From positions 1-13,233 of IMG/VR virus record IMGVR_UViG_2695420747_000007: 13,233 bases of DNA. The stretch is one strand, 5' to 3'. Shown in pieces: positions 1-13,233 of the stretch. Every line of letters begins with the position of its first letter. The stretch's first letter is position 1. The position numbers were made by a program, and so were the translations under genes. Source of the DNA: a virus. Taxonomy: Duplodnaviria; Heunggongvirae; Uroviricota; Caudoviricetes. The notes below the pieces were generated by a model. That model did no database searches, was not told the origin of the DNA, and saw only the letters and a program-made list of their open reading frames with translations.

Positions 1-115
1 CCCGCCACCAGCACACCGTCAGCCAGCACTGACATTATCCGGCTGCTGCAATGCCATTCACAAAAACAGTAAGCAATCACTTTTTACCGTAACAGGTGAT
101 AATCCAGATATGTAT

Positions 116-469
116 CTACCCCAGATGAGTAATCCGAAGTTCATCCATACCACAGGTCCTGGCTATTCTGTTGTACTCCTGAACAAGAGCAAATAATTCT
201 GAATTAGCCACCATGAACTCATCGCAAACCCTCTGTATAGCATCACTATTCAGAATAATAACGTCTCTTCCCGAAAGACGATCAGGAGTACAGAACAAAA
301 CTGTCAAACGGCTGAAGGCCTTTGCTCGTTCTGCATTGACTATATCAATACGCTGCCTAAGGATGAAACACCCCGACGCCTCATCAATATTCACTCTACC
401 CACACCATATGAATGATAAATATTTAATGCTGAAAAAACCATTAGACGGTATAACAAACACTCAATCAA
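116..469 (-). CDS. Hypothetical AT-rich cargo protein (117 aa, copy 1), downstream of the phage tRNAs in the late-transcript direction
   Basis: Open frame in the six-frame track; co-oriented with Q/pR'. Track start at 469 is TTG; first in-frame ATG is at 442; no convincing SD at either. Stop TAG at 116-118. No family recognised. Confidence 0.35.
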   Translation of the reverse strand: MIECLLYRLMVFSALNIYHSYGVGRVNIDEASGCFILRQRIDIVNAERAKAFSRLTVLFCTPDRLSGRDVIILNSDAIQRVCDEFMVANSELFALVQEYNRIARTCGMDELRITHLG

Positions 470-579
470 TACTTAACAGAACTTTTATTTTTGACAAACA
501 TATAATATTTTCAACAAGATCCTGAGCCAGGTATATTTCAGTATAAGGCTCTGCCGGAAGGAATCTGGAAGAATGAATA

Positions 580-656
580 TGGCGCGCTGTACTGGATTCG
601 AACCAGTGACCGATTGCTTAGAAGGCAATTGCTCTGTCCGGCTGAGCTAACAACGC
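580..656 (-). tRNA. tRNA-Arg (anticodon UCU), copy 1
   Basis: Reverse complement folds as a cloverleaf: acceptor GCGTTGT/ACAGCGC, D-stem GCTC/GAGC, anticodon stem ATTGC/GCAAT with loop CTTCTAA, T-stem ACTGG/CCAGT with loop TTCGAAT, encoded CCA. Resembles the argU/argO class from memory. Confidence 0.9.
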
Positions 657-690
657 TGAATACCGATAATGGACCGCCATCGGGGACCCG

Positions 691-706
691 CCCCCCCCCC
701 CCCCCC
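691..706. repeat. C16 homopolymer between the two tRNA genes (C5 in the second copy at about 2350-2354)
   Basis: Read directly: 16 consecutive C here versus 5 at the equivalent position of copy 2. Confidence 0.9.
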
Positions 707-767
707 GCACCAACAACCCTGTTATCGTGTCGTCTGCTCTTCCTGATAAGCTCATGGCGGTTTGTGA

Positions 768-843
768 TGGTGGCCCTTGCTGGATTTGAACCAGCGACCT
801 GGCGATTATGAGTCGCTCGCTCTCACCACTGAGCTAAAGGACC
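768..843 (-). tRNA. tRNA-Ile2 (anticodon CAU, ileX/ileZ-like), copy 1
   Basis: Reverse complement GGTCCTTTAGCTCAGTGGTGAGAGCGAGCGACTCATAATCGCCAGGTCGCTGGTTCAAATCCAGCAAGGGCCACCA: anticodon loop CTCATAA, T-loop TTCAAAT, encoded CCA. Near-identical to my recollection of E. coli ileX; CAU could formally also be Met. Confidence 0.85.
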
Positions 844-882
844 GGGAGCAGAATAATAACGGTCCGTAATTAATTCCGCAAT

Positions 883-904
883 AAAAAACCCGCTCGGTGG
901 CGGG
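883..904 (-). terminator. tR'-like intrinsic terminator, copy 1
   Basis: On the minus strand a GC hairpin (CCCGC-loop-GCGGG, plus 889-904) is followed by a T6 run (plus 883-888), placed after the pR'-like promoter. Confidence 0.65.
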
Positions 905-953
905 TTGTAGAAACTCTTCTAACGTCAGGTATAAAAAGCCCATCGTTATGACG

Positions 954-981
954 AATTTACCACAGATTCCGGAAAAATCAA
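954..981 (-). promoter_or_regulatory. Late promoter pR' with qut/pause region, copy 1
   Basis: Minus strand TTGATT-16-TAAATT followed by CGTCATAACGATGGGC. The TAAATT...AACGATGGG arrangement matches the lambda pR'/pause element as I recall it. Confidence 0.6.
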
Positions 982-986
982 CCTTG

Positions 987-1756
987 TTACCTAGTTACCT
1001 TTTTTAACTGCCGCTCAGCCCATGCTTCTTCAATATCAAACCGGGTCACCAGCGCATCATAGAATTTCTTAACTGTTTTTTCCCATGACGCGCGTGTTAT
1101 CTGGTTTGTCACCTCGCATATAGCATTAAATGCCTCCGTTGATGGTAGTCTTTCATAGCCACGACCACCACAACGCTGGCAGTCTCTGATAACAGGCATA
1201 CCACGTTTTACCGACTCTTCACGGTGAATGGCGACACCACGCCCACGGCAATCCTTACAGACGGTGGAAACCTCACCCTTTCCGCCACACTCCGGACAGG
1301 CAACTTTTACCACCTCCCTGACTTTTTTCCATTCTTCCCAGTAAGACGGATACACACCTTTCGTACACTTTGCCCATACCGGCGGCTTACCATCCGGATA
1401 CTGGACCTTGTTTGTAAAAACTACGCTTTCAATAAATTTTTCCCCATAGCAACAAGGGCACTGCTTTTTACTCGCTGCGCTGCGGGCATAATCCTCAAAA
1501 GCGTACGAAGCCATAATGCGCATCACTACCGGTTTTATTTCTGCCGGAAGTTTTCTCAACGCCGCCACACGATCGCACCGACTGAGTGCATAATCTGCCA
1601 GTAATTCTGTTGCCCGCGCCCTGTCATTCATACTGATGCCCATCTTCCCCAGGAACGCAGAAAACCCCATCTCAGCCCGATTCTGTGTCATGCCCTGCGC
1701 GGCCATCACATCAGTGATACTCAGCGCATCTTTTGACGTTGAGGCCGATGCATCGG
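987..1756 (-). CDS. Q-like late antiterminator, copy 1, 5'-truncated by the N gap
   Basis: Paralogous to the 273-aa ORF at 4175-4996. Multiple CxxC zinc-ribbon motifs (CPCC, CPEC, CKDC, CQRC); sits directly upstream of pR'. The frame runs open from 1709 up to the N run at 1757. Confidence 0.7.
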
Positions 1757-1763
1757 NNNNNNN
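1757..1763. other. Assembly gap (7 N)
   Basis: NNNNNNN in the sequence; flanks match mid-Q on one side and the ORF117 downstream flank on the other. Confidence 0.95.
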
Positions 1764-1784
1764 GGTGATAATCCAGATATGTAT

Positions 1785-2141
1785 CTACCCCAGATGAGTA
1801 ATCCGAAGTTCATCCATACCACAGGTCCTGGCTATTCTGTTGTACTCCTGAACAAGAGCAAATAATTCTGAATTAGCCACCATGAACTCATCGCAAACCC
1901 TCTGTATAGCATCACTATTCAGAATAATAACGTCTCTTCCCGAAAGACGATCAGGAGTACAGAACAAAACTGTCAAACGGCTGAAGGCCTTTGCTCGTTC
2001 TGCATTGACTATATCAATACGCTGCCTAAGGATGAAACACCCCGACGCCTCATCAATATTCACTCTACCCACACCATATGAATGATAAATATTTAATGCT
2101 GAAAAAACCATTAGACCGTATAACAAACACTCAATCAACAC
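1785..2141 (-). CDS. Hypothetical AT-rich cargo protein (copy 2 of the 117-aa ORF)
   Basis: Near-identical to 116-469 (one R/G difference near the N-terminus). Track start at 2141 is GTG. Confidence 0.35.
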   Translation of the reverse strand: MLIECLLYGLMVFSALNIYHSYGVGRVNIDEASGCFILRQRIDIVNAERAKAFSRLTVLFCTPDRLSGRDVIILNSDAIQRVCDEFMVANSELFALVQEYNRIARTCGMDELRITHLG

Positions 2142-2248
2142 TTAACAGAACTTTTATTTTTGACAAACATATAATATTTTCAACAATATCCTGAGCCAGG
2201 TATATTTCAGTATAAGGCTCTGCCGAAAGGAATCTGGAAGAATGAATA

Positions 2249-2325
2249 TGGCGCGCTGTACTGGATTCGAACCAGTGACCGATTGCTTAGAAGGCAATTG
2301 CTCTGTCCGGCTGAGCTAACAACGC
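2249..2325 (-). tRNA. tRNA-Arg (anticodon UCU), copy 2
   Basis: Identical sequence to the tRNA at 580-656. Confidence 0.9.
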
Positions 2326-2425
2326 TGAATACCGATAATGGACCGCCATCGGGGACCCGCCCCCGCACCAACAACCCTGTTATCGTGTCGTCTGCTCTTC
2401 CTGATAAGCTAATGGCGGTTTGTGA

Positions 2426-2501
2426 TGATGGCCCTTGCTGGATTTGAACCAGCGACCTGGCGATTATGAGTCGCTCGCTCTCACCACTGAGCTAAAGGGC
2501 C
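2426..2501 (-). tRNA. tRNA-Ile2 (anticodon CAU), copy 2, variant 3' end
   Basis: Same cloverleaf as 768-843 but the 3' terminus is encoded as TCA instead of CCA (plus tga at 2426-2428) and acceptor position 3 is C instead of T, turning a G-U pair into G-C. Confidence 0.8.
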
Positions 2502-2550
2502 GGAAGCAGAATAATAATGGTGCGTAATTAATTCTGCAATCTCATCCGTT

Positions 2551-3600
2551 TCAAACGATTAAATCCTGAACTTCCCTGACTGTCTGCTCAAAACGTCCGG
2601 TCTCCAGTTCAACGCCAATCGCACGACGCCCGAGCGCCAGTGCAGCTTTTACCGTTGAACCTGAGCCCATAAAAAAATCTGCAACCAGGTCACCCGGACG
2701 ACTGCTTGCGCTGATTATCTGCTGCAGCATTTCTGCCGGTTTTTCGCACGGATGTTTCCCGGGATAGAACTGCACCGGTTTATGTGTCCACACATCCGTG
2801 TACGGCACCTGCGCCGTCACACCAAAATACCGCCGCAGATGCTTATATTCACTCTGCAGCTCCACATACTGCCGGTTCAGTGACGTATACGTATCCACCA
2901 GCTGGTGGTGGGGCTTTTCCAGTTCACCGCGCTGATGTTTCTCTTCTGCCACCCGGGCAAACAGCGACTGTAATTTCAGATAATCGCTTTCGTTCGGTAG
3001 CTGCCACTGACTGGCACTGAACCAGTGCGACACCATGTTTTTCTTTCCTGTGGCATCTGCAATCTGTTTTGCCGTTATCCCCAGGGCCACGCGCGCATCA
3101 CGAAAGTAAGAAATCAGCGGGGCCATCACATGCTGTTTCAGTGCACTGCCCTTCGCCGCATACCCGGCATCTTTCGGACGATACGGCCCCTGATAATGTT
3201 CCGCGAACAGAATGCGCTCTGTGGCGGGGAAATACGCCCGCAGGCTTTCCTTGTTGCATCCGTTCCAGCGTCCGGACGGCTTCGCCCAGATAATATGGTT
3301 CAGCACACTGAAGCGTTCACGCATCATGATTTCGATATCAGATGCCAGGCGATGACCACAGAACAGGTAAAGACTTCCGACAGGTTTCAGCACCCGCCAG
3401 AACTGCGCCAGACACTGGTCCAGCCACTTCAGGTAATCATCGTCGCCCTTCCACTGGTTATCCCAGCCCTCAGGCTTCACTTTAAAGTACGGCGGGTCCG
3501 TGACTATCAAGTCAACAGAATTTTCGGGTAACGACCGGATAAATTCCAGGCAGTCGACGTTGATTAACTCACAACTGGATATTTTTACAGTGTTAAGCAT
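2551..3600 (-). CDS. Orphan DNA methyltransferase, beta-class (N6-adenine or N4-cytosine), 349 aa
   Basis: N-terminal motif IV DPPY (IVTDPPYF) precedes C-terminal motif I FxGxG (DFFMGSGST), the beta-class permutation. ATG at 3600 with weak SD. No adjacent endonuclease gene. Confidence 0.85.
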   Translation of the reverse strand: MLNTVKISSCELINVDCLEFIRSLPENSVDLIVTDPPYFKVKPEGWDNQWKGDDDYLKWLDQCLAQFWRVLKPVGSLYLFCGHRLASDIEIMMRERFSVLNHIIWAKPSGRWNGCNKESLRAYFPATERILFAEHYQGPYRPKDAGYAAKGSALKQHVMAPLISYFRDARVALGITAKQIADATGKKNMVSHWFSASQWQLPNESDYLKLQSLFARVAEEKHQRGELEKPHHQLVDTYTSLNRQYVELQSEYKHLRRYFGVTAQVPYTDVWTHKPVQFYPGKHPCEKPAEMLQQIISASSRPGDLVADFFMGSGSTVKAALALGRRAIGVELETGRFEQTVREVQDLIV

Positions 3601-3692
3601 GGATCATTAAGCCTGTCTCTGATAGGCTCATTCTGCTTTTGCGCAAAGCAGTGGGCCTGAGGTTTGCTTGTGAACCCAACGCATGAGCAGAT

Positions 3693-3723
3693 GGCTGGTG
3701 GGTGCCCCTAACACCCACCAGCC
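3693..3723. promoter_or_regulatory. Perfect 12-bp inverted repeat (GGCTGGTGGGTG-N7-CACCCACCAGCC) in the methyltransferase 5' region
   Basis: Read directly; arms are exact reverse complements and no T-tract follows on either strand, so it is not an intrinsic terminator. A second near-palindrome CTGCTTTTGCGCAAAGCAG lies at about 3632-3650. Confidence 0.4.
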
Positions 3724-3740
3724 GCCCATTTACCACAAAT

Positions 3741-3763
3741 AAAAAAGCCTTCACTGCGGAAGG
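3741..3763 (-). terminator. Intrinsic terminator after the small wHTH ORF
   Basis: Minus-strand hairpin GCCTTC-loop-GAAGGC (plus 3747-3763) followed by T6 (plus 3741-3746); overlaps the stop codon of the upstream ORF. Confidence 0.5.
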
Positions 3764-3948
3764 CGTCTGTAACAACCGAACTGATAGTCTGCCAGACCCG
3801 CCATAACCAGCTGGGTCAGTATTAACTGGCAGCGTTCGCGTGAAAGGTAAGTATTCTGCGCTATCTCCCCGACTGTCGCCGGTTCGGTAACGCTTAATTC
3901 ATTAAACACCACTCTGGCGGTTTCTGTCATATCCTGCTGTTTTAGCAT
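3751..3948 (-). CDS. Small putative winged-helix protein (65 aa)
   Basis: ATG at 3948 with SD-like AAGGGA 7 nt upstream; the track's longer ORF extends this upstream. Sequence MLKQQDMTETARVVFNELSVTEPATVGEIAQNTYLSRERCQLILTQLVMAGLADYQ looks like a small wHTH/FeoC-like fold. Inference only. Confidence 0.5.
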   Translation of the reverse strand: MLKQQDMTETARVVFNELSVTEPATVGEIAQNTYLSRERCQLILTQLVMAGLADYQFGCYRRLPQ

Positions 3949-4070
3949 GTCTTTTTCCCTTTTCCGGTTAACGTGACACACCAATAACTCTTGTCGAAAA
4001 AGCCAGCAAGCTGAAAGACAGGTATTCACCGCCACCAGCGCGTTTACTGTACTGACGCGATTTCAGTCAT

Positions 4071-4092
4071 AAAAAACCCGCCAGGTGGCGGG
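4071..4092 (-). terminator. tR'-like intrinsic terminator, copy 2
   Basis: Minus-strand hairpin CCCGCC-ACCT-GGCGGG (plus 4077-4092) followed by T6 (plus 4071-4076). Confidence 0.7.
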
Positions 4093-4141
4093 GTGTAAAA
4101 AATCTTCTAACGTCAGGCATAAAACGCCCATCGTTAGAGCA

Positions 4142-4169
4142 AATTTACCACAGATTCGGGAAAAATCAA
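4142..4169 (-). promoter_or_regulatory. Late promoter pR' with qut/pause region, copy 2
   Basis: Minus strand TTGATT (plus 4164-4169), 16-nt spacer, TAAATT (plus 4142-4147), then TGCTCTAACGATGGGCG; lies just downstream of the Q stop codon. Confidence 0.65.
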
Positions 4170-4174
4170 CAACA

Positions 4175-4996
4175 CTATCGCGTTACCCTCTTTAACTGCC
4201 GCTCCGCCCATGCCTCTTCAATGTCAAACCGAACCACCAACGTATCGTAAAAGCGTTTCACTGATTTTTTCCACGTATCAAGCGTGATAGCACTCGTCAC
4301 TTTGCATATGGCATTAAATGCCTCCGTTGATGGCAGCCTTTCACAGCCACGACCACCACAACGCTGGCAATCTCTGATAACAGGCATACCACGTTTTACC
4401 GACTCTTCACGATGAATGGCGACACCACGCCCACGGCAATCCTTACAGGCGGTGGAAACCTCACCCTTTCCGCCACACTCCGGACAGGCAACTTTTACCA
4501 CCTCCCTGACTTTTTTCCATTCTTCCCAGTAAGACGGATACACGCCTTTTGTGCACTTTGCCCACACTGGTGGCTTACCATCCGGATACTGGATCTTGTT
4601 TGTAAAAACCTCGCTTTCAATAAATTTTTTTCCGTGACAGCAGGGGCACTGTTTTTTGCTCGCCGCGCTACGGGCATAATCTTCAAACGCATACGAAGCC
4701 ATAATGCGCATCACTACCGGTTTTATTTCTGCCGGAAGTTTTCTCAACGCCGCCACACGATCGCACCGACTGAGTGCATAATCTGCCAGTAATTCTGTTG
4801 CCCGCGCCCTGTCATTCATACTGATGCCCATCTTCCCCAGGAACGCAGAAAACCCCATCTCAGCCCGATTCTGTGTCATGCCCTGCGCGGCCATCACATC
4901 AGTGATACTCAGCGCATCTTTTGACGTTGAGGCCGATGCATCGGTCAGGCCAGGGGATTTTGGGGAGTAGTATTTCGGTAAATCTTCCAGTTTCAT
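4175..4996 (-). CDS. Q-like late antiterminator (273 aa), zinc-ribbon type
   Basis: ATG at 4996 overlaps the rusA stop (ATGA). Four CxxC pairs. Position immediately upstream of the lambda-like pR'. Resembles the QuuQ/YdfT class from memory. Confidence 0.8.
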   Translation of the reverse strand: MKLEDLPKYYSPKSPGLTDASASTSKDALSITDVMAAQGMTQNRAEMGFSAFLGKMGISMNDRARATELLADYALSRCDRVAALRKLPAEIKPVVMRIMASYAFEDYARSAASKKQCPCCHGKKFIESEVFTNKIQYPDGKPPVWAKCTKGVYPSYWEEWKKVREVVKVACPECGGKGEVSTACKDCRGRGVAIHREESVKRGMPVIRDCQRCGGRGCERLPSTEAFNAICKVTSAITLDTWKKSVKRFYDTLVVRFDIEEAWAERQLKRVTR

Positions 4997-5367
4997 TTTT
5001 TGACCTGCTCTTCATGCATTATGGGGTAAATCTTCACCCCCATACGTCCACCAGATACTGGCTGACCACGAACGATATTGATTTCATCAAACTGCTCATC
5101 GTCCATTAACACTCCCGCATGCGTCAGCGCATCCAGCGGTGCTTTCAGGATATTGTCCAGGTCGCGACGACGCTTATCCGGTGGCTCTGCAATCACCTTT
5201 ATCGCCAGCCTTCCGGACAGGCTTAATTTCAGCCGCTGCTGGCGAACAATAAGCGCCACAGCACGGCGATAACGCTTTCCCTCCTCCGAGATAAAATATG
5301 TGCTGCCACGGCGTCGCCAGTAAGTGTTCACCGTCGGCGGGTAAGGTAAAACCAAATCTATGAGCAT
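4993..5367 (-). CDS. rusA: Holliday-junction resolvase RusA
   Basis: 124 aa; conserved RusA-like segment PPDKRRRDLDNILKAPLDALTHAGVLMDDEQ; ATG at 5367 with SD AGAGGTGA. Confidence 0.9.
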   Translation of the reverse strand: MLIDLVLPYPPTVNTYWRRRGSTYFISEEGKRYRRAVALIVRQQRLKLSLSGRLAIKVIAEPPDKRRRDLDNILKAPLDALTHAGVLMDDEQFDEINIVRGQPVSGGRMGVKIYPIMHEEQVKK

Positions 5368-5379
5368 CAGTCACCTCTT

Positions 5380-6429
5380 TTACCCAAGCACGCCAGTTGC
5401 AAAGGCGTGATCAAGAAAACGAAAAATTAAATCAACCTGAGAACCATGCTTTTCTTCGAACGCCAGCGGATCCGCATGAAGCTCGTTGTGATGCTCCCGA
5501 CACAGCGGTAGCGTGAAAATATCGTGAGATTTTGTCCCCATTCCGCCCTGACCATGACCAATCAGGTGATGGGGATCGTCGGCTGGCTTACCACAACACG
5601 CACACGGCTGTGTCTTCACCCAGCGTGTGTATTTCTCGTTAACCCAGCGGCGACGTTTAGGTCGTTTCATGAAAGATTCCGGAGACTCAGGATCAACGGC
5701 AATGCTGACCACCGTCTTTTCCTGTGGTGGGTTCTGTTGCTGGTGGGCGTGAGGCAGCGGCGCAAGATTTTTTGTGCGCTGTTTCAGTATGCTGGTGGCG
5801 GTCTGCTCTCCCGGTACGATGTCGCTTTCACGGTACATTGAGCGGATTTTTTCCGCACGCAACCCCAGCGAACGACGTAATACCGCTTCCGGTAGCGCGT
5901 CCGCCAGCTGATTGCGGACCGCCCACCAGGATAATTCAGCCAGAGATAATTCACGCTCCTGCGTACCGCTTATTGCGTGACCGATGACGTCAATCATCCA
6001 TGCTGACAGGTTTTGATGAGCAAGTTGCTCGAGTGATTCGGATGTCTGGTCACGCAGCTGGTTGTCGCAGTGCCAGCACAACACCATTGCGCCGGTACCA
6101 TATCGGTGAATAACGGTTTCGCTGTGATGATAATCGCCGTGTGGCCACTGGCAGGATTTAATATGGCGCAACAGCCAGTCAGACAATGCACCAGCACCAC
6201 CAGCAGCACGAATTACCCGTGCGTTACTGAAAAACGGCAGCAATGTTTTGTCTTCCACCAGCGGCTGGCGAACGGCAGGAACGACCCCGGACGGCATATT
6301 ACGCATGCTTTTCGGTTCCGGCTCCACCAGTACCCGGGTATTGTGGAATACCGGCATGGATTCACGGCCCGGCTTAACGACCACCAGCCCGAGTTCCGGT
6401 ACCAGAACAGGTCGAAGTAATACCCGCAC
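5380..6429 (-). CDS. YdfU-like DUF968 protein with C-terminal Cys/His (HNH-like) motif
   Basis: 349 aa; GTG start at 6429 with GGAGG 4 nt upstream; C-terminal CACCGKPADDPHHLIGHG...CREHHNELH; adjacent to Q as ydfU is to quuQ in the Qin prophage (recalled synteny). Confidence 0.7.
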   Translation of the reverse strand: MRVLLRPVLVPELGLVVVKPGRESMPVFHNTRVLVEPEPKSMRNMPSGVVPAVRQPLVEDKTLLPFFSNARVIRAAGGAGALSDWLLRHIKSCQWPHGDYHHSETVIHRYGTGAMVLCWHCDNQLRDQTSESLEQLAHQNLSAWMIDVIGHAISGTQERELSLAELSWWAVRNQLADALPEAVLRRSLGLRAEKIRSMYRESDIVPGEQTATSILKQRTKNLAPLPHAHQQQNPPQEKTVVSIAVDPESPESFMKRPKRRRWVNEKYTRWVKTQPCACCGKPADDPHHLIGHGQGGMGTKSHDIFTLPLCREHHNELHADPLAFEEKHGSQVDLIFRFLDHAFATGVLG

Positions 6430-6430
6430 G

Positions 6431-6709
6431 TTACCTCCAGATGCGTTGCTGGAATGTACGGGACGGACGCGGTGGGCGTTCGGAGTAAGGCAATCTGACT
6501 GAGATTATCCAGTGACGGTAGTCGAGGCTAAGGGCTTTTTTAACCTCGTATCCGCGCCTGCGGTAACACTGAATTATCCATTCAGCCTGCTCTTCAGTGC
6601 ATGGTGGATGCTGGAACCAGTCCGATTTGAATGCATGAAAACGCCGTCCGCACCTGCTGGCAAAGACGGCAGAATCATCAGAATTGTGTAATTTGGTATC
6701 GTGCGCCAT
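6431..6709 (-). CDS. Hypothetical nin-region protein (92 aa from the ATG at 6709; the track ORF extends to a TTG at 6820)
   Basis: Open frame whose stop (TAA 6431-6433) sits 1 nt before the GTG of the downstream gene. Start uncertain, no clear SD. Occupies the position of rem in Qin but identity is not established. Confidence 0.4.
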   Translation of the reverse strand: MAHDTKLHNSDDSAVFASRCGRRFHAFKSDWFQHPPCTEEQAEWIIQCYRRRGYEVKKALSLDYRHWIISVRLPYSERPPRPSRTFQQRIWR

Positions 6710-7070
6710 CGGTTGTCTCTGCTGGCGCAGCAGGTGCCAGTTGTTCAGGCTGGCGTATAAAGTATAAATAAACTGGTTCCAGTGTAAAGCCCCTACATTA
6801 ATGGAATAAAAGTCAAACAACAGATTGTTGGGATAAACACAACGCTTATTATTAAAAGCGATTAGATAAATTAAATTTTAATGTTATGCAATTTTACCAG
6901 ATCACCATAACATCTCGTTTGAAACCACCGAAACAACAACCATATCAATATTGATTATGTTAAAGTGAGTAAATATGGAAAACAACAAATCTGCACATTA
7001 CGCTCCTTTTTTATCTGTGATACTTTTTGTTTTATGCTGTGTGTGGGCATTATTTTTATAAAAATATTTA

Positions 7071-7097
7071 CAGATAAAATAAACCCGCCGAAGCGGG
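7071..7097 (-). terminator. hok mRNA 3' terminator / fold-back region
   Basis: Minus-strand hairpin CCCGC-TTCG-GCGGG (plus 7084-7097) followed by a T-rich run. The 3' segment CCTCAACGCACCC (plus about 7105-7117) is complementary to the predicted hok mRNA 5' end GGGTGCTTGAGG. Confidence 0.55.
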
Positions 7098-7167
7098 TTA
7101 AGCGCGGGTGCGTTGAGGATGCCTGACACATCAGAGGCGGCGAGGGATTTCTCCCTCGCCAAGTCTC

Positions 7168-7323
7168 TTACTCCTCAGGTTCGTAGACTGTGAAGACAGC
7201 GACCTCCATCTGGCCGGTTCGGATTCGTACCTCGCAGAGGTCTTTCCTCGTTACCAGTGCCGTCACTATGACGGTTAAACAGATGACGATCAGGGCGATT
7301 AACATCGCCTTTTGCTGCTTCAT
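7168..7323 (-). CDS. hok: Hok-family type I toxin (51 aa)
   Basis: MKQQKAMLIALIVICLTVIVTALVTRKDLCEVRIRTGQMEVAVFTVYEPEE, near-identical to HokD/RelF as recalled. SD AAGGAG 9 nt upstream. An in-frame upstream ATG at 7380 gives a 70-codon mok-like frame. Confidence 0.9.
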   Translation of the reverse strand: MKQQKAMLIALIVICLTVIVTALVTRKDLCEVRIRTGQMEVAVFTVYEPEE

Positions 7324-7336
7324 AGCCTGCTTCTCC

Positions 7337-7365
7337 TTGCCTTTCGGCACGTAAGAGGCTAACCT
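7337..7365 (+). promoter_or_regulatory. sok: sok antisense promoter
   Basis: Plus strand TTGCCT-17-TAACCT, colinear with the plasmid R1 sok promoter (TTGCGC-17-TATCCT) as I recall it; lies inside the mok-like leader, antisense to hok. Confidence 0.5.
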
Positions 7366-7371
7366 AGATTT

Positions 7372-7445
7372 GCCGTTCATAGATTGAGCCTCAGATTAAT
7401 GTTAAGCGTCTTGCAGGACGCGTAATGTTAACTGGGGCTTTTCTC
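7372..7445 (+). ncRNA. sok: Sok-like antisense RNA (approximate extent)
   Basis: Inferred from the promoter above and the usual Sok length of about 65 nt; the 3' end is not defined by a clean terminator. Confidence 0.35.
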
Positions 7446-7498
7446 TATCTGCCTTTGGTGTTCATGCCTGAGGCAGATAGCCTCAAGCACCCGCAGTC

Positions 7499-7526
7499 AT
7501 TCTACTTAACTAAGATTTCCCCGCAA
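7499..7526 (-). promoter_or_regulatory. hok/mok promoter
   Basis: Minus strand TTGCGG-16-TAGAAT; the predicted 5' end GGGTGCTTGAGGCTATCTGCCTCAGG resembles the R1 hok mRNA 5' end as recalled. Confidence 0.5.
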
Positions 7527-7581
7527 ACCGTTTTTGTCCAGCACAATAAATATCCAACTAAACCAATGGAGTTCGCTGTAT

Positions 7582-7761
7582 TTACCGCCAGTATTCAATG
7601 CACATGACCGCCATGAACACCCCTAAAAAAAGGGCATTTATATATCCAAATATTAATATCAAAACATCAACTTTTTCCATATACCTTGCTGTGAAGATGA
7701 TGGGCATACATGATACGAACAACCAGAACGCAACAAACAAAAACTGCAATGCGTTTTTCAT
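7582..7761 (-). CDS. Small hydrophobic two-helix membrane protein (59 aa)
   Basis: ATG at 7761 preceded by AGGAGG (4-nt spacer); MKNALQFLFVAFWLFVSCMPIIFTARYMEKVDVLILIFGYINALFLGVFMAVMCIEYWR. The track ORF extends to a GTG at 7800. Confidence 0.5.
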   Translation of the reverse strand: MKNALQFLFVAFWLFVSCMPIIFTARYMEKVDVLILIFGYINALFLGVFMAVMCIEYWR

Positions 7762-8192
7762 TATTCCTCCTACAATCAATGTGCAATTACATTTAAACAC
7801 ACCTCAATTTGGCCGGACATATAAATATCTAAACTAGAAAAAATCACTTACATAGCGTTACAAACTCTTTAGTCTAAAGGTTCATCGTAAAACACTCCCC
7901 ATACTTATCAGTCCGTTCCGCGCCAGGTAGCTTATTGCCTTATCTGGCAACCTATAATCAGGTTTCCGCTTTTTCAGTTGGCTGGTCGTTTAACCGACAT
8001 AGTTAACCCATTAATCTAGTTGCCGGATGTTGGTGGATTTTCGCGTTTTAGTTGTTCATAAAAGTGCACAGCTTTAACCAGTTCTTCTGATGTAACCAGG
8101 GCTGGTGAGGCAGTGAATAAGGCCTGAATTTGATAGTTCGGCCTGTCGTTACAATCCTCTTTTTTCGGTACATATTTCCAGTCAACAGACCA

Positions 8193-8303
8193 CTACTTCT
8201 CCTGAAAGTCCGTAACGCCTTTTTTCACGTAGCGATATCGCCATGCCACTGGTTTTGCTTGCTCCGCCGTTTCATACCCTTCCTGATAATTAATCTCGCT
8301 CAT
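8193..8303 (-). CDS. Small ORF (36 aa) ending in TAG, with 58 further in-frame sense codons down to 8016
   Basis: ATG at 8303 overlaps the upstream stop (ATGA). After the TAG at 8193-8195 the frame continues protein-like (…PALVTSEELVKAVHFYEQLKRENPPTSGN) with no start codon of its own. Confidence 0.4.
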   Translation of the reverse strand: MSEINYQEGYETAEQAKPVAWRYRYVKKGVTDFQEK

Positions 8304-8476
8304 TCATCGCCCCACTCATCACAATATGCTTCGACCGGATTTTTTCCTGCTTCATAATCATCACGCCATGCTTCAGCATCAGCAGCACTGCCACCACGTA
8401 ACTCTGCATAGTCCATTAACAGTTCATGCCATTTTTCAAAACTGACGTTGTATTTAGTTGAACCAAAATCAGCCAT
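8300..8476 (-). CDS. Small protein (58 aa), translationally coupled
   Basis: Not in the track (under 60 aa). ATG at 8476 with purine-rich SD GAGGAA; overlaps the upstream stop (ATGGCTGA) and the downstream start (ATGA). MADFGSTKYNVSFEKWHELLMDYAELRGGSAADAEAWRDDYEAGKNPVEAYCDEWGDE. Confidence 0.5.
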   Translation of the reverse strand: MADFGSTKYNVSFEKWHELLMDYAELRGGSAADAEAWRDDYEAGKNPVEAYCDEWGDE

Positions 8477-8651
8477 TTTGCTCTTCCTCTTCGTCTTTTA
8501 TTTCGTGATATGAGTAATTGCAGTAGTTAAAGAAAATATCTTTTGCTTCGTCATGTATTTCATCAGGCGTCGCATCAGCATCCACTTCGAATTCATCCTC
8601 GAAATCTCCACCAGCCATTCCCGTTTCAATAATTATTTTGAACTTTCGCAT
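8469..8651 (-). CDS. Small highly acidic protein (60 aa)
   Basis: ATG at 8651; Asp/Glu-rich (…GDFEDEFEVDADATPDEIHDEAKD…KDEEEEQNG); first gene of a coupled three-gene set. Confidence 0.45.
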   Translation of the reverse strand: MRKFKIIIETGMAGGDFEDEFEVDADATPDEIHDEAKDIFFNYCNYSYHEIKDEEEEQNG

Positions 8652-8744
8652 TTCACTACCGCCCTTTCGGGTGGCCTCCTGCTGTTCTGAGGGTGCAGAA
8701 ATCCCTCCGGTTAAGGATTAAATTTTTAACAGTGCTAAATTTAA

Positions 8745-9101
8745 TTATTCAGTTTTGGATTTTGTCACCCTGCGTATCCACGCTTTCCCGTTACGCTCAA
8801 TCTGAATTAGCTTTTCTATATTTTTTCGCCTTTCCCGTTCCTCCTGGCGCAAGAGCCTTACATCATCTGCCAGTCTGGTTTCTCTTTTCGCCACAGAGAG
8901 CATCCAGTCAAATGGCTCCACAACTGCACCGCAGATTTTACAGCGGACCTGACGCTCTTTTTCGTCAACCCGGACAGAAGCGTGATGGCAATATGGTCTT
9001 TCCGATGGCTCATAAAGAAAATTAACCTGATTACGAGGGTCATCCTCTTTTATCGGAAATAAAACGATATTGCTTAACTAATCCTCTGGTTTTATTTCCA
9101 T
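8745..9101 (-). pseudogene. ORF interrupted by an in-frame TAG at codon 8 (about 118 codons total); Cys/His-containing protein
   Basis: ATG at 9101 with SD AAGGAG 6 nt upstream; codons ATG GAA ATA AAA CCA GAG GAT TAG, then 110 open in-frame codons (…ERPYCHHASVRVDEKERQVRCKICGAVVEPFDWM…) to TAA at 8745-8747. No alternative start between the TAG and the Cys motif. Confidence 0.4.
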
Positions 9102-9158
9102 GCTCCTCTCCTTTGATGCGAATGCCAGCGGCAATTGAAGCCTGATAGCTAATTTCAC

Positions 9159-9581
9159 TCACAGTACCGCCTCCTGAAAATTACCCTGATAGAAAGCCAG
9201 TACACGCTGCATAGCTTCGCTCTTCCGGCACTCGCGACAGATTATATTCAGGCGCCTGTCGTAGCGGCGTATTTCTCCGTCTGGTAATGACCAGATTAGG
9301 TCCGGATCAACCGCAGATGGTTTCTTCGGCTTTGCCCTTGAGAGCTTTTTACGGGCATTTTGCCAGTCCTTACGCGCCTGTTCAGACGGGAATAACCCGT
9401 AACCAGAGTTGTATACATCGCCACTGGCAACCAGCTCTCTGGCCAGAACACTCATCAGATATCTTGTTGCCCCAGTTTTAGTTTCCAGTTGTCGTAACGT
9501 CTCGCGCCCACTTTGGCGTACGAGTTCAACAACCTGCCCTTTAATTTTTTCCCGCTCTTCTTGTGTAAAAACTTTTGCCAC
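9159..9581 (-). CDS. Hypothetical replication-module protein (140 aa)
   Basis: GTG start at 9581 with AGGAGG upstream; follows the O-like gene. No family recognised. Confidence 0.6.
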   Translation of the reverse strand: MAKVFTQEEREKIKGQVVELVRQSGRETLRQLETKTGATRYLMSVLARELVASGDVYNSGYGLFPSEQARKDWQNARKKLSRAKPKKPSAVDPDLIWSLPDGEIRRYDRRLNIICRECRKSEAMQRVLAFYQGNFQEAVL

Positions 9582-9621
9582 AAGCCCTCCTGAAAATTAC
9601 CTCATGACCAGAAATTAACAC

Positions 9622-10692
9622 TTACCCCCTGAAGCCCGGCGGAATTTCGTTATCCGGTTCAGAAATATGATTCACACAACGCTGGTTGTTCGTGCCGCTT
9701 ACCGGGAGCAACCAGGGGTTCTCAAAATTCCGGTCCGGTCCAAAAAACGTCGTCGCTCGCTGAACAAATTCCGTTCCCGTTTTCCCGGTAGCCGCCAAGT
9801 ATCTTGCGTAACGCCTCACGCCATCCAGCATGGCCTCTGGTGGCACCCCCTCGCGTAATCTGGCCTTCCAGGCACTGAAAGCGGATTTCTTCGGGTTTGC
9901 TCCGGCACGCAACGGGTACTCCCGCCAGACCTGTTCGAACACATCCGGATAATCCACTCGTCCCACAGACTGCCCGGTGTTTTCCGGGACTACCCGATCG
10001 GCTTCCCGCTGAATGGCGGAATCGGCTTCGGGCTGCTGCAGTTGGTGTGATTGCTCCGGCCTTGCGGTCATCACCTGCTGCACAGCGCCCGAATCGGCTT
10101 TCAGCGCATACGCTGAATCGGCTTCCGGTGTCGTGCCTGCTGGCTGACCAAGATTGACGGTCTGAACATCCCCTGCCTGGTTCGTGGCGTTTTTTACGCC
10201 ATGGACCATAGTGTTTTGATCTTCTTGATCTGTATCTTTATCTGTATCTTTATCTGTCGTGACTCGTCGTGACATATGCGTGACATTTCGTGACGCGCCG
10301 TGACAATCGCCATTTTGTTCCCGCTTTCTTTCCCTCTCTCGCTGCGCCCTCTTGCGCTCTGCAGGAGATTTTGCGGTTTGCGAAATATTGCCGTTGTCCT
10401 CTTTAAGCACCTGGCGTTTTTCCCATCCAGTGATTAAATCACCATCAAGTACCCGCCCCTGCATCGTCTGCAAAATTGAATCAATTACCTCTTCTGTCAC
10501 GTCGAGCGCACTTGCCAAATCTTCTGTCGTGACCTCAATGTGACCTCGCGTGACATTTCGTGACGCGCTCACCAGGAGGTGGATATACACTGCCATCACT
10601 GTTGCAATTGGCTGCCCTGACACCCTGGCAATTGTTCGCCACTTAGGGTCATTTGGCATGTCATGCCATAATCTGAGCCAGGCGTTAGCCAT
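9622..10692 (-). CDS. Phage replication initiation protein, O-like (replisome organizer), 356 aa
   Basis: ATG at 10692 with SD GAGGTG (the track starts 2 codons earlier at a GTG). Position after cro-like/YdaT-like genes. N-terminus MANAWLRLWHDMPNDPKWRTIARVSG… resembles replisome-organizer N-domains. Contains the phased repeats listed below. Confidence 0.65.
   Translation of the reverse strand: MANAWLRLWHDMPNDPKWRTIARVSGQPIATVMAVYIHLLVSASRNVTRGHIEVTTEDLASALDVTEEVIDSILQTMQGRVLDGDLITGWEKRQVLKEDNGNISQTAKSPAERKRAQRERERKREQNGDCHGASRNVTHMSRRVTTDKDTDKDTDQEDQNTMVHGVKNATNQAGDVQTVNLGQPAGTTPEADSAYALKADSGAVQQVMTARPEQSHQLQQPEADSAIQREADRVVPENTGQSVGRVDYPDVFEQVWREYPLRAGANPKKSAFSAWKARLREGVPPEAMLDGVRRYARYLAATGKTGTEFVQRATTFFGPDRNFENPWLLPVSGTNNQRCVNHISEPDNEIPPGFRG
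10258..10304. repeat. Iteron-like array 1: five CGTGAC repeats at 10-11 bp phasing, next to an AT-rich GATC-containing stretch (10211-10257)
   Basis: CGTGAC at 10258, 10268, 10279, 10289, 10299. Upstream is the direct repeat ATCTGTATCTTT x2 and two GATC sites. Confidence 0.5.
10496..10564. repeat. Iteron-like array 2: CGTGAC/TGTGAC repeats at 10-11 bp phasing plus one inverted copy
   Basis: Copies at 10528, 10539, 10549, 10559 and inverted GTCACG at 10496. The 21-mer GCGTGACATTTCGTGACGCGC is identical in both arrays (10279-10299 and 10549-10569). Confidence 0.5.
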
Positions 10693-10763
10693 ACTCACCT
10701 CTTTTGATACCGAATCTTTTTACTCACAAATTGCCGGAAGCGATCCGGTATGAATATTGCGAG

Positions 10764-11189
10764 TCAATGCACAGCCACAATATTTCCTGCAGGGCCACCA
10801 CGATTCATCTGGTTGAAACCAGCGATCGCCACTGCGACAAAATCATCAGCGTCTCTCACCAGTCGTTCCCGCGTCTCCACTAGTTCCCGAAAATAGGCTG
10901 AGCTATGACTGCGCATTCGGGCCACCAGCAGAGGTGGCATTGCTTTTTCGATAGCTGGTAACAACGCCTGAATTTTTTTAACCGCATCAGGGGTGTCTTT
11001 CTCCACCCAGCGGAAAATTTTCTGAGTATTGCGAGCCAGGGCTTCCGGATGGCTGTCGTCATACAGTTCCGGGAACGTCATTCCCAGCTCGAAATACGCT
11101 TTGGTAATTTTCGCAGCCGGTACTTTTTCGCCGTCCGGATGCGCCCAGGCATTCATCGCCATGCGGATGTGTTCATGCTTGATTTTCAT
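10764..11189 (-). CDS. YdaT-like protein (141 aa)
   Basis: ATG at 11189 overlaps the cro-like stop (ATGA); SD GGGAG. N-terminus MKIKHEHI matches my recollection of Rac YdaT; position equals cII/ydaT in lambdoid maps. Confidence 0.5.
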   Translation of the reverse strand: MKIKHEHIRMAMNAWAHPDGEKVPAAKITKAYFELGMTFPELYDDSHPEALARNTQKIFRWVEKDTPDAVKKIQALLPAIEKAMPPLLVARMRSHSSAYFRELVETRERLVRDADDFVAVAIAGFNQMNRGGPAGNIVAVH

Positions 11190-11440
11190 GAATCAACTCC
11201 CATCAGCTTTTTCGTAGTAGTTTTATTCCTGCCAATAGTTAAAATTGCATCGGCAGAAAATAATCCGTTTGATGCAAGAGCGATTTTTTCAGCGTAATTT
11301 GTTTCGCCGGTATATTCTGTGCGAGGCAATTTTCCGTTATCCATCCATTTATAGATTGCTCTTTGGCTGACACCACAAACGTCGGCCACAACAGCAACGC
11401 GAACAGTTTTGATTACATCTTCAAGTGTTTTCTGGTTCAT
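11186..11440 (-). CDS. Cro-like / YdaS-like HTH regulator (84 aa)
   Basis: ATG at 11440 with SD GAGGGTGA (the track ORF extends upstream to a non-ATG start). HTH-like segment VADVCGVSQRAIYKWMDNGKLP; divergent from the repressor gene. Confidence 0.65.
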   Translation of the reverse strand: MNQKTLEDVIKTVRVAVVADVCGVSQRAIYKWMDNGKLPRTEYTGETNYAEKIALASNGLFSADAILTIGRNKTTTKKLMGVDS

Positions 11441-11456
11441 ATCACCCTCACAATGT

Positions 11457-11512
11457 GAACTTTGAGTACATGCTATAACAGAACTGACAGTACATTCAAG
11501 AGCGAATATCAT
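11457..11512. promoter_or_regulatory. OR-like divergent promoter/operator region
   Basis: Two 15-bp direct repeats, GAACTTTGAGTACAT (11457-11471) and GAACTGACAGTACAT (11481-11495). Plus-strand CTGACA-17-TATCAT ends 7 nt before the repressor ATG (leaderless-type). Minus-strand TTGAAT...TATAGC for the cro-like gene. Confidence 0.5.
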
Positions 11513-11519
11513 TGAACTT

Positions 11520-11939
11520 ATGGTTCATGAAGATAAAGCGCGTAAAGAGTTCGCCAGTAGGCTTGCGCTAGCCTGTGAAAACGCTGGTTATGAACAACAT
11601 GGAAGGCAGGCAGAAATTGCCCGTCGAATGAAATTAACACCAAAAGCGGTTAGCAAATGGTTTAATGGCGAAACAATTCCTCGCCGGGAGAAATTAAGGG
11701 AATTAGCAACACTAATAGGAACAACACCAACCTATCTTTTGGGAGAGGATACAGAAGAAAGTGGACAGGTACGTTTCTATCAGGAGTTAAATCCAAGACA
11801 AAAAATCATCATTGACCTTCTGGACGAGCTCCCTGACAGTGAGACAGATGAACTTTTAAAAACTCTTGAAGAGAAAAAACAGAAGTACAATGCAATTTAC
11901 GAAGAGTTAGCACGAAAGAAAAAACAAAAAGCCTCTTAA
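11520..11939 (+). CDS. DicA-family prophage repressor (139 aa, XRE-type HTH, no peptidase domain)
   Basis: HTH segment MKLTPKAVSKWFNGETIPRREKLRELATLIGTTPTYLLG; C-terminal helical tail. No SD before the ATG. Architecture matches DicA/RacR-type repressors as recalled. Confidence 0.75.
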   Translation: MVHEDKARKEFASRLALACENAGYEQHGRQAEIARRMKLTPKAVSKWFNGETIPRREKLRELATLIGTTPTYLLGEDTEESGQVRFYQELNPRQKIIIDLLDELPDSETDELLKTLEEKKQKYNAIYEELARKKKQKAS

Positions 11940-12014
11940 ACCAGCATAAATCCGGTAGCGCCTTCCTCCGGGTTTGTGCTTCACTTTATCCCATCTCATT
12001 TTTTTACACACAAA

Positions 12015-12059
12015 ATGTACTAAATGTACTTTACAACAATGAACACAAAGTACATTATA
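12015..12059 (+). promoter_or_regulatory. OL-like operator/promoter region downstream of the repressor gene
   Basis: ATGTACT at 12015 and 12024 and inverted AGTACAT at 12049, the same heptamer as in OR; candidate promoter TTTACA-(17-18)-ATTATA reading rightward. Confidence 0.4.
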
Positions 12060-12236
12060 TACCTGCCACCCACCCCGCCCCACAGAATGCAGGGCAATAC
12101 TTCGAGTTACCAGGCAGTGGTCAGGGGTTAAGTAGCCAGCCCGAGGCGTAAGAACATGACGGCAGGGTTCAACTTTAATAACTATGCAGCAGGTTTTTGT
12201 TCCGCTACCCCGGCGTTAAGGGGAAATGAGGTCAGC

Positions 12237-12392
12237 ATGGATACTATCAATCTTGGCAACAGCGAATCTCTGGTATGTGGCGTGTTCCCCAACCAGGACG
12301 GTACGTTCACCGCAATGACGTATACCAAAAGCAAAACGTTTAAAACCGAAAATGGTGCCCGTCGCTGGCTGGAAAGAAACTCAGGTGAGTGA
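12237..12392 (+). CDS. YdfA-like small protein (51 aa)
   Basis: ATG at 12237 with GAGG 5 nt upstream; MDTINLGNSESLVCGVFPNQDGTFTAMTYTKSKTFKTENGARRWLERNSGE; resembles Qin YdfA from memory. The track ORF starts at an upstream ATG (12156). Confidence 0.55.
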   Translation: MDTINLGNSESLVCGVFPNQDGTFTAMTYTKSKTFKTENGARRWLERNSGE

Positions 12393-12393
12393 T

Positions 12394-12969
12394 ATGGATT
12401 TCGACACAATCATGGAAAAGGCTTACGAAGAATACTTCGAAGGCCTTGCCGAAGGCGAAGAAGCTCTCAGCTTCAGTGAGTTTAAACAGGCACTCAGAAT
12501 AAGAATGTGCTCTCACAATGACGCGGAGCACAAATATGAGAAGCAAAATCAGACCGCAGAAAATTTTGTTCTGGAACCCGGAGAAACGCTTTTCAAAATT
12601 CCCGTTACGTGCCCCATTTGCGGTTTTACATCAGAAGAACTTGACGACTCCTGTAACAATCAGGAAACAACCAAGTATGTCGAAGATGATACCGAGTGCG
12701 CACGAAGAACGATTATATCCACGAGTCCAAACTCCAGGGCCAATAAATCTCACTTTGAGAGGGTGATTAATCCACTCCCCCAAACCAATAAAAAAGATGC
12801 CGGAGGACAAAAAACCCAATGGAACAACGGGATATCTGTCAAAAAAAGACGTTCCATTAAAGACAAACAACGCAGCGCCAACAACTGTAAGCGCTTTATA
12901 CCAGTAATCAATTTTCATGTTCTTAAGCGGATTTATTGGTGGTTGCGACATTGCTTAATGAATCCTTAA
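12394..12969 (+). CDS. Hypothetical early-left operon protein (191 aa), CPICGF motif; C-terminal part low-complexity
   Basis: ATG at 12394 is 1 nt after the YdfA-like stop, with SD AGGTGAG. The N-terminal part is protein-like; the last 60 or so codons are A-rich and basic and may be fortuitous. Confidence 0.4.
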   Translation: MDFDTIMEKAYEEYFEGLAEGEEALSFSEFKQALRIRMCSHNDAEHKYEKQNQTAENFVLEPGETLFKIPVTCPICGFTSEELDDSCNNQETTKYVEDDTECARRTIISTSPNSRANKSHFERVINPLPQTNKKDAGGQKTQWNNGISVKKRRSIKDKQRSANNCKRFIPVINFHVLKRIYWWLRHCLMNP

Positions 12970-13233
12970 AACTGTGGTGATTTTAAGGATACCACCTCGC
13001 CTGACGTGGTTAAAAGCAGGCACACAACACGAAAGCGCACGGCGAAGTTCGTCTCACTGTACGGTGTCGTTAAATTTAATTCGACCGTGCGCTTCCGGTT
13101 GTGGCAACCCGCAAAATGGCGCGGCGGTAAGTATGGCGGGGTTATTCCTTCCCCGTTGAGGACACCGGGTTGTCAGGTTGACCATACGCTTAAGTGACAA
13201 CCCCGCTGCAACGCCCTCTGTTATCAATTTTCT

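Follow-up and report, generated by a model that had tools for sequence, protein, structure and literature searches.

The DNA considered here is a stretch of 13,233 nucleotides (nt) from a Caudoviricetes virus (positions 1 to 13,233 of IMG/VR record IMGVR_UViG_2695420747_000007), referred to at its full length as the window; it is part of a lambdoid Escherichia coli prophage. A gene on its minus strand encodes a replication initiator, named 'phage replisome organizer' by NCBI, and the results of a computational analysis suggest, with a probability of about 0.8, that the segment at 10178–10565, inside this gene, is the replication origin of the prophage. The segment contains two arrays of short direct repeats (iterons), called array A and array B, together with an AT-rich tract and a palindrome. 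A candidate origin had been proposed here in an earlier note based on the letters of the DNA, and a comparison of 50 homologous genes strongly supports this proposal. The evidence comes from the anatomy of the segment, its deep conservation, selection acting on the DNA itself, the co-variation of the two arrays, the predicted fold of the protein and the behaviour of the whole as an exchangeable module. The elements of the gene, as positions in the window, are as follows.

9622–10692, minus strand: initiator gene, 'phage replisome organizer' (356 amino acids, coordinates including the stop codon; open reading frame with translation)
10178–10208, no strand: imperfect 13-pair palindrome just past the AT-rich tract, with a perfect core TGGCGT-ttttt-ACGCCA at 10185–10201
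10211–10256, minus strand: candidate DNA-unwinding element, A-rich, purine-rich on the gene strand (ACAGATAAAGATACAGATAAAGATACAGATCAAGAAGATCAA)
10257–10305, minus strand: array A, five iterons, GTCAC cores at gene nt 389, 399, 409, 420 and 430
10496–10501, plus strand: lone inverted core copy (GTCACG on the plus strand), 33 base pairs (bp) downstream of array B
10527–10565, minus strand: array B, four iterons, GTCAC cores at gene nt 129, 139, 149 and 160

Two phased iteron arrays in the initiator gene

Read on the plus strand, the motif CGTGAC starts at 10258, 10268, 10279, 10289 and 10299 in array A (steps of 10, 11, 10 and 10 bp) and at 10528, 10549 and 10559 in array B, where a one-mismatch copy, TGTGAC, at 10539 completes a series with steps of 11, 10 and 10 bp. 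There are nine direct copies in total and the arrays lie 270 bp apart, start to start, so the nine motifs, the spacing of about 270 bp and the 10–11 bp phasing described in the earlier note are all where it placed them. The 21-mer it reported as common to both arrays (GCGTGACATTTCGTGACGCGC) is exact at 10278–10298 and 10548–10568. In the orientation of the gene the core reads GTCAC(G), an asymmetric sequence repeated head to tail in units of 10–11 bp. The note had described its first array as abutting an AT-rich segment with GATC sites and direct repeats; the adjacency is correct, but this array is the downstream one in the gene, with the AT-rich tract after it, because the gene is on the minus strand.

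These repeats are well above chance. CGTGAC occurs 14 times in the window against 5.3 ± 2.2 expected, a count reached in none of 200 shuffles, and same-strand clusters of at least three closely spaced copies arose in 6 of 1000 window shuffles, against the two observed (five and four copies). The complete genome of the isolated phage Tritos (46 kb) contains two GTCAC clusters only, arrays A and B, with 0.025 expected. A search of the window and of the full Tritos genome for a second origin-like cluster, comparable to oriR of phage SPP1, found none.

Array A encodes residues C130–T145, in a disordered linker, and array B encodes A43–T55, comprising the last part of helix 3 and the loop ahead of the helix-turn-helix (HTH). 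The cores begin at codon positions 3, 1, 2 and 1 in array B and 2, 3, 1, 3 and 1 in array A; they are thus read in three frames, giving ASR, NVT, GH, CH and MSR, with a period not divisible by 3. The peptide ASRNVT is encoded twice, at residues 43–48 and 133–138, in agreement with the two …SRNVT… segments of the earlier note. The lone inverted core copy is read as GAC GTG ACA (DVT). It is present at gene nt 193 in 17 of the 23 genes of the GTCAC class and in no other class, and the conserved peptide DVT could equally well explain why its position is kept.

Conservation of the arrays across homologous genes

A scan of one genome per species yielded 50 loci encoding relatives of the N-terminal domain of the initiator (N-domain), with 33–100% identity, and two further genes were added by exact protein look-up. 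One identical locus and two loci truncated by contig ends were left out, giving 50 analysed genes (the window gene, 47 scan loci and the two extra genes). The hosts include Enterobacterales (E. coli, Serratia), Pseudomonas, Bordetella, Chromobacterium, Janthinobacterium, Sphingomonas, Rhodoblastus and assorted metagenome-assembled genomes, and the initiator family therefore spans gamma-, beta- and alpha-proteobacteria. Each gene was searched blindly for its best 5-mer phased at 10 or 11 bp, an array being scored when at least three phased copies were present. By this criterion, array A was found in the linker in 46 of 50 genes (1.9% of shuffles) and array B, at gene nt 90–230, in 37 of 50 (0.4% of shuffles); both arrays were present in 37 of the 50. 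The positions of the arrays within the gene are the same across homologs, and their phasing is not scrambled. One locus (L049) has an array further upstream and array A in reverse orientation.

The core itself differs between lineages: GTCAC(G) in E. coli, Serratia, Pseudomonas, Bordetella and others, GTAACG(C) in Pantoea, Enterobacter and others, and (C)GAACGC in many beta- and alpha-proteobacterial members. The two arrays of a given gene carry the identical core. The blindly identified 5-mers have a common 4-mer in 31 of 36 genes, and the five misses consist of four artefacts of register (e.g., CGAAC versus AACGC of one CGAACGC) and one tie; the two extra genes also have the same core in both arrays. 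The three iteron classes may be read alike, via their common ACG, or the determinants of reading may be subtle.

The earlier note had suggested that synonymous sites be compared. When 22 GTCAC-class genes with pairwise nucleotide identities below 90% were aligned by codon, conservation of third-codon positions was 0.93 inside the cores versus 0.56 elsewhere in the N-domain (Mann-Whitney p = 9e-7). A core present in three frames with its synonymous sites frozen indicates selection on the DNA, and the three-frame reading excludes a repeated peptide with free synonymous drift, one of the outcomes that the note had named as fatal to its proposal.

In two Serratia/Pantoea homologs, L042 (2501–3691) and L047 (2501–3805), an inserted domain of about 110 residues (YVYYVATTDGDVVRVGISRNPWAR…), GIY-YIG/T5orf172-like by eye, lies between the N-domain and the linker, with arrays of CTACG/CGTAG repeats on both sides.

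AT-rich tract and palindrome beyond array A

The candidate DNA-unwinding element encodes T146–N161 (TDKDTDKDTDQEDQN). The GC minimum of the gene (10200–10259; 0.33–0.35) adjoins array A and shows a strong excess of T on the plus strand. Three 12-bp repeats, TCTTTATCTGTA, lie at 10223–10258, and GATC occurs at 10218–10221 and 10227–10230. A tract of this kind follows array A in all 41 of 41 loci: over 42 nt its AT content is 0.69 versus 0.45 gene-wide and its purine content on the coding strand 0.75 versus 0.57 (CAGATAAAGATAAAGA… is a typical sequence). It is kept even where the gene is only 31–40% AT. Its reading frame is 0 in 33 genes (DKDK/DTDT) and a different one in six (QIREE…). GATC lies in or at the end of the tract (…GAT CTA AAA…) in many enterobacterial homologs. 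Control of origin firing by Dam and SeqA is conceivable from this pattern, and the GATC sites may merely reflect GAT codons.

The palindrome at 10178–10208 sits at the junction with the C-terminal module (NTMVHGVKNAT). Its GGCG..CGCC part recurs in four of five genes with the same junction, where it is not separable from conservation at the protein level. A scan for promoters and terminators gave nothing above shuffles save this palindrome, which scores as a terminator-like hairpin on the antisense strand, and an Rfam scan of the origin segment gave no RNA family. Hairpins are frequent here in the 41 loci: 25 of them (61%) have a perfect hairpin of at least 6 bp in the 130 nt that follow array A, versus 16% of shuffles and 32% of control windows, and 29% have one of at least 7 bp, versus 4% and 9%, respectively. 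Three loci from distant hosts (L003, L019 and L044; Aquitalea, Chromobacterium and Rhodoblastus) have hairpins with an identical 11-nt loop (TCACTACGTTC) directly past the AT-rich tract, 22–27 nt after array A, and L011 has a similar loop (TCACTTCGTTC). The stems under the common loop differ (CACCTACC, ACCCACC and TATATCC), and the hairpin found at the corresponding position of the window is another one. The common-loop hairpins may be a priming or loading signal.

The initiator protein and its possible helicase connections

The initiator matches phrog_3729, 'replication initiation protein', in PHROGs (E = 2e-257). The whole protein has no Pfam family at E ≤ 0.01. It had been called O-like in the earlier note, a name that holds for its role; no Phage_rep_O is among the matches at E ≤ 0.1 for 93 family members, and homology to lambda O was rejected. 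Neither the initiator nor its family members match RepA_N in Pfam at these same thresholds. Its coding features are listed below.

10408–10692, minus strand: predicted N-terminal winged-helix domain (residues 1–95)
10315–10365, minus strand: basic helix, residues 110–126 (AERKRAQRERERKREQ), between the winged helix and array A
9625–9699, minus strand: C-terminal tail, residues 332–356 (…SGTNNQRCVNHISEPDNEIPPGFRG)

An AlphaFold (AF2) model built from 93 diverse homologs is confident for residues 11–95. The predicted N-domain consists of helices 4–11, 16–25 and 29–45, a loop at 46–55, an HTH made of helices 56–63 and 67–77, and a beta-hairpin wing at 78–88, and this predicted fold matches those of DnaD and pSK41 RepA. 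The model thus identifies the N-domain as a DnaD-like winged helix. Against PF09681 (Phage_rep_org_N), the Pfam family of N-terminal domains of the SPP1 G38P type, the N-domain scores E = 0.02 and 15.3 bits, below the cut-off of 23.3; the sub-threshold alignment is colinear, residues 5–122 corresponding to profile positions 1–118 of 121. Homology to SPP1 G38P was not demonstrable (hhalign probability 0.8%). The basic helix is taken from the AF2 secondary structure and has conserved residues R113, R118 and R120; residues 133–167 are predicted to be disordered, with a predicted local distance difference test score (pLDDT) below 50 in the linker. The loop at 46–55 takes insertions of 7 to more than 20 residues among homologs. 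In E. albertii, as in some E. coli variants, it is longer by 7 residues, which correspond to 21 bp, exactly two extra iterons. The iterons, lying in this loop and in the disordered linker, are thus placed where the protein tolerates them.

The C-terminal tail (…ISEPDNEIPPGFRG) is nearly identical to the extreme C-terminus of the host primosomal protein DnaT. A phmmer search against the PDB gives 6aep, 'Primosomal protein 1' (E = 7e-4), and DnaT 9zbt_D residues 159–179, and the tail matches positions 156–179 of the NCBIfam DnaT model. The likeness of …NQRCVNHISEPDNEIPPGFRG suggests a mimicry of DnaT by which the initiator may reach the host helicase-loading machinery. A function or partner of the extreme DnaT C-terminus was sought in the preprimosome paper and was not found.

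No P-like or DnaC-like helicase-loader gene is present in the window, and the initiator gene is the only replication gene of its replication module. The sole replication gene of Tritos, which is complete and annotated, is the counterpart of the window initiator, and its fully annotated 46-kb genome has no P, DnaC-like, helicase or primase gene. In all four relatives with the same C-terminal module that were fetched (L054–L057), a DnaC-like (IstB_IS21/Bac_DnaA) gene lies directly downstream. The window and Tritos lack this gene and have a DUF977/Ren-like gene next instead, so their version of the initiator module presumably relies on host DnaC.

Two length polymorphisms affect the region after the N-domain. 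Two imperfect 36-bp direct repeats, 96 bp apart, at 9997–10128 of the window (ATCGGCTTC…) encode a repeated PEADSA in the C-terminal linker, and they coincide with a length polymorphism in the 324-residue E. coli variants, in which the 32 residues between these 96-bp-spaced repeats are missing. The E. coli protein P0019 (302 amino acids) has an in-frame deletion from just past CHGAS to PEADS, by which most of array A is gone together with the AT-rich tract and the junction; it is probably an origin-dead prophage copy.

Exchange of the module

The N-domain and its arrays are joined to at least three kinds of C-terminal part: the window type, a DnaT-like PF17948 domain and short forms. Conversely, two proteins (P0047 and P0100) have a window-type C-terminal part behind unrelated N-domains. 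Just ahead of the common junction (…QNT(L/M)VHGEK…), the P0047 gene has three repeats of about 11 bp (tcGAAGGgc) and the P0100 gene four 12-bp repeats (AAGCCTTCGTTA), followed in both cases by an A-rich tract. As these genes carry repeats and a tract of their own, the binding domain, the iterons and the AT-rich tract travel as one unit, with the recombination joint just beyond the AT-rich tract. In lambdoid phages, origin specificity behaves as an exchangeable module, and lambda hybrid phages show it moving with the N-terminal half.

Proposed mechanism and alternative explanations

The N-terminal DnaD-like winged helix would bind the asymmetric GTCACG iterons. As these are one helical turn apart, the five proteins bound at array A, and likewise the four at array B some 230 bp upstream, would be lined up along a single side of the helix. 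On supercoiled DNA, the complex at array A would melt the adjacent A-rich, purine-biased tract at 10211–10256, and the C-terminal module of the initiator would then recruit the host helicase system. Neither the window nor Tritos encodes a loader, relatives that share the C-terminal domain have a DnaC-like gene, and the tail is DnaT-like. The core origin would consist of array A and the AT-rich tract. Array B would serve the same initiator as an accessory site, as a partner in cooperation or looping or else in negative control.

Several observations weigh against an origin of this design. Thirteen of the 50 genes (e.g., L036, L048 and the AT-rich Ventosimonas/Entomomonas members) retain array A and the tract with array B absent or reduced, so array B is not essential to the design. 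The peptide ASRNVTRGH, encoded by array B, is conserved within the GTCAC class, and the nucleotide conservation of this array therefore overlaps in part with constraint on the protein. The distance between the two arrays, taken modulo 10.5, is scattered, so they keep no constant helical phase relative to each other. No HTH or wing residues were found to track the iteron class and so to point to a co-evolving reader; the class-specific residues of the fold are confined to those specified by array B and, at the turn of the HTH, by the inverted copy. DnaA boxes are not above chance and none lies inside 9700–10700. A literature search gave no binding, melting or replication data for the initiator family, and nothing relevant on GTCACG iterons or a described origin of the family.

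Some of these points would also be accommodated if array A and the AT-rich tract were the whole origin and array B were a negative-control or autoregulatory site outside origin firing. The initiator might then block or attenuate pR-type transcription within its own gene, or array B might pair with array A ('handcuffing') and limit re-initiation, as do the incA iterons of P1. The 13 homologs that do without array B, the AT-rich element adjoining array A only and the scattered helical phase all fit such a division of labour, which has a precedent in iteron plasmids, in which a second iteron set for control is established (P1 incA, F incC). Against it, array B is kept in 37 genes over very large distances with the core, orientation and phasing of array A, as would be expected equally of a cooperative partner, and we regard the division as a tenable but less probable arrangement. 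It is unlikely that both arrays are operators only, of the initiator or another regulator, with replication starting elsewhere in the prophage. Intragenic arrays of binding sites could act as transcriptional roadblocks, and the silence of the literature on replication by this family would suit such a role, but the complete Tritos genome has no other GTCAC cluster, the universal AT-rich, purine-biased tract is a feature of origins rather than of operators, the same layout is found in three proven origins (lambda, SPP1 and pSK41), and the arrays move with the N-domain in module exchange.

That the sites are read by some other phage or host protein, for example one involved in packaging, recombination or nucleoid structure, would account for the lack of HTH or wing residues co-varying with iteron class. 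This is very improbable given the strict linkage of the arrays to the N-domain across three proteobacterial classes with differing neighbour genes, and the occurrence of other repeats at the same place with other types of N-domain; a host factor would also leave the lineage-specific cores unexplained. The least credible explanation is that the repeats only encode a repeated peptide (…SRNVT…) or are slippage-prone linker filler, with no function as DNA. ASRNVT is indeed present twice, linkers often have low-complexity repeats such as DKDT, and array length differs among strains. However, the three-frame core yields unlike peptides, its synonymous sites are frozen and its period of 10–11 bp is no multiple of 3, and these three facts rule the explanation out; furthermore, the peptides are replaced wholesale between classes while the DNA periodicity and the two-array layout stay, and the A-rich tract is read in two frames. 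An origin consisting of array A and its tract, with array B as an accessory site, is thus the reading we prefer.

Comparison with known origins

The origin of lambda, inside the O gene, has four inverted 19-bp iterons and a 40-bp AT-rich region (PMC5043065). As in lambda, the putative origin of the window lies in the initiator gene between the parts encoding N-terminal DNA-binding and C-terminal recruitment functions, the putative initiator sites form an array with an AT-rich region some 40 bp long after it, the gene occupies an early-right operon position after cro- and cII-like genes, and origin specificity moves with the N-terminal half when modules recombine. Lambda ori also has a palindrome beyond the AT-rich region, as here. 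The resemblance to lambda drawn in the earlier note therefore extends to the AT-rich tract, found after the array in all 41 loci, but not to the repeats: those of the window are short, asymmetric and direct, every 10–11 bp, whereas the four 19-bp repeats of lambda are inverted and bound by dimers. In addition, the window initiator is no homolog of lambda O, a second array lies inside the coding region of its DNA-binding domain, and there is no P-like gene, DUF977/Ren-like being directly downstream.

OriL of the Bacillus phage SPP1, in gene 38, has AB boxes and an unwinding element and is sufficient in vitro (PMC5737612). Both systems have repeated boxes and an adjoining AT-rich unwinding element inside an organizer gene, and 'phage replisome organizer' is the NCBI name of the window protein, G38P being the replisome organizer of SPP1. 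The repeats and an AT-rich 9-bp repeat of gene 38 are at about nt 360–450, just past the N-domain, the same relative place as array A. Unlike the window, which has its second array in the same gene, SPP1 has its second G38P-bound region (oriR) far off, and it encodes its own loader and helicase (G39P and G40P), neither of which is present in the window module.

The origin of plasmid pSK41, in rep, comprises four Rep boxes, which are the binding sites of a DnaD-like N-terminal domain, and the linker they encode is dispensable (PMC5703833). A DnaD-like N-terminal domain (predicted for the window) and direct repeats central in its own gene, the 'Rep boxes' of pSK41, are common to the RepA_N initiators and the window initiator, and in both cases the repeats encode the linker between the N- and C-terminal domains. 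The window initiator differs in having no sequence match to the RepA_N family, two arrays rather than one and an unrelated C-terminal module with a DnaT-like tail; pSK41 is a plasmid of Firmicutes, the prophage a phage of Gram-negative hosts. In the plasmids P1 (oriR/incA) and F, two arrays of one initiator's repeat, a few hundred bp apart, flank the initiator coding sequence. This two-array arrangement is a possible model for array B, although the plasmid iterons are about 19–22 bp long, roughly two turns in spacing and outside the coding sequence, and the initiators belong to the Rep_3 family.

The window gene has at least three phased direct repeats adjoining an AT-rich element (5 + 4 copies; 33–35% GC), as expected of an iteron-type theta origin, and its repeats are selected as DNA and move with the initiator module; yet no HTH residues co-vary with them. 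The design of an origin within the initiator gene is thus familiar, of a textbook kind, and the origin of this initiator family is undescribed as far as the literature search reaches. The features that are new with respect to the models are the short, asymmetric, one-turn iterons, the two co-varying arrays, one of them within the code for the DNA-binding domain, and the absence of a phage-encoded loader in the window.

Prophage and gene neighbourhood

The initiator gene starts with an ATG at 10692, preceded by GAGGTG; the program-made list of open reading frames begins it two codons earlier, at GTG. Its neighbours are as follows.

11520–11939, plus strand: repressor gene
11186–11512, minus strand: Cro/YdaS-like gene
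10764–11189, minus strand: YdaT/cII-like gene
9159–9581, minus strand: DUF977/Ren-like gene, directly downstream of the initiator gene

Past the DUF977/Ren-like gene are hok/sok, DUF968-HNH, RusA, Q, a DNA methylase and tRNAs. The hok/sok-type toxin-antisense pair (7168–7492, minus strand) consists of a Hok/Gef protein (7168–7380) and Rfam sok (7318–7492; 111.7 bits). Two paralogous Q-type antiterminator genes are present in one late-control region (987–1709 and 4175–4996, both on the minus strand; Pfam Antiterm, E of about 1e-49 each), with an N6/N4 DNA methylase (2551–3600) and tRNA genes (2252–2325 and 2429–2501) between them. Two further tRNA genes are located at 583–656 and 771–843.

The 2.5-kb region at 9100–11600 has 100% identical copies in many E. 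coli chromosomes, among them that of ATCC 43886, and is at least 80% covered in 1540 of 5426 complete E. coli genomes. It is 95–98% identical in isolated phages such as Tritos, Evi and vB_EcoM-606R7; in the region shared with Tritos, nucleotide identity is 96.8%, and the N-domain is 99.4% identical. The carriers of the N-domain in the phage collection are recent isolates only, with no model phages among them.

Biological significance

The initiator is common in E. coli and occurs in three proteobacterial classes, and no description of its origin was found in the literature. Defining the origin would provide a small self-contained replicon, consisting of one gene with the origin inside it, and would make incompatibility or specificity classes predictable from sequence (GTCACG, GTAACG and GAACGC). 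It would also help in calling replication-competent prophages, P0019 being an example of loss. A more speculative idea, to which we give very little credence, is that the loop at 44–55, beside the HTH, helps to read the iteron, such that a single piece of DNA would serve as a binding site and at the same time encode part of the protein that reads it. If true, a change in the repeat could alter site and specificity together, and new origin specificities and incompatibility groups could arise by this inherent mechanism. The gene illustrates how overlapping constraints on DNA and protein can be accommodated, by one-turn iterons read in three frames and sited in a loop and a linker. The layout of an origin inside the linker of its initiator recurs in lambda O, SPP1 G38P, pSK41 Rep and, if the origin is where we place it, the initiator family of the window.

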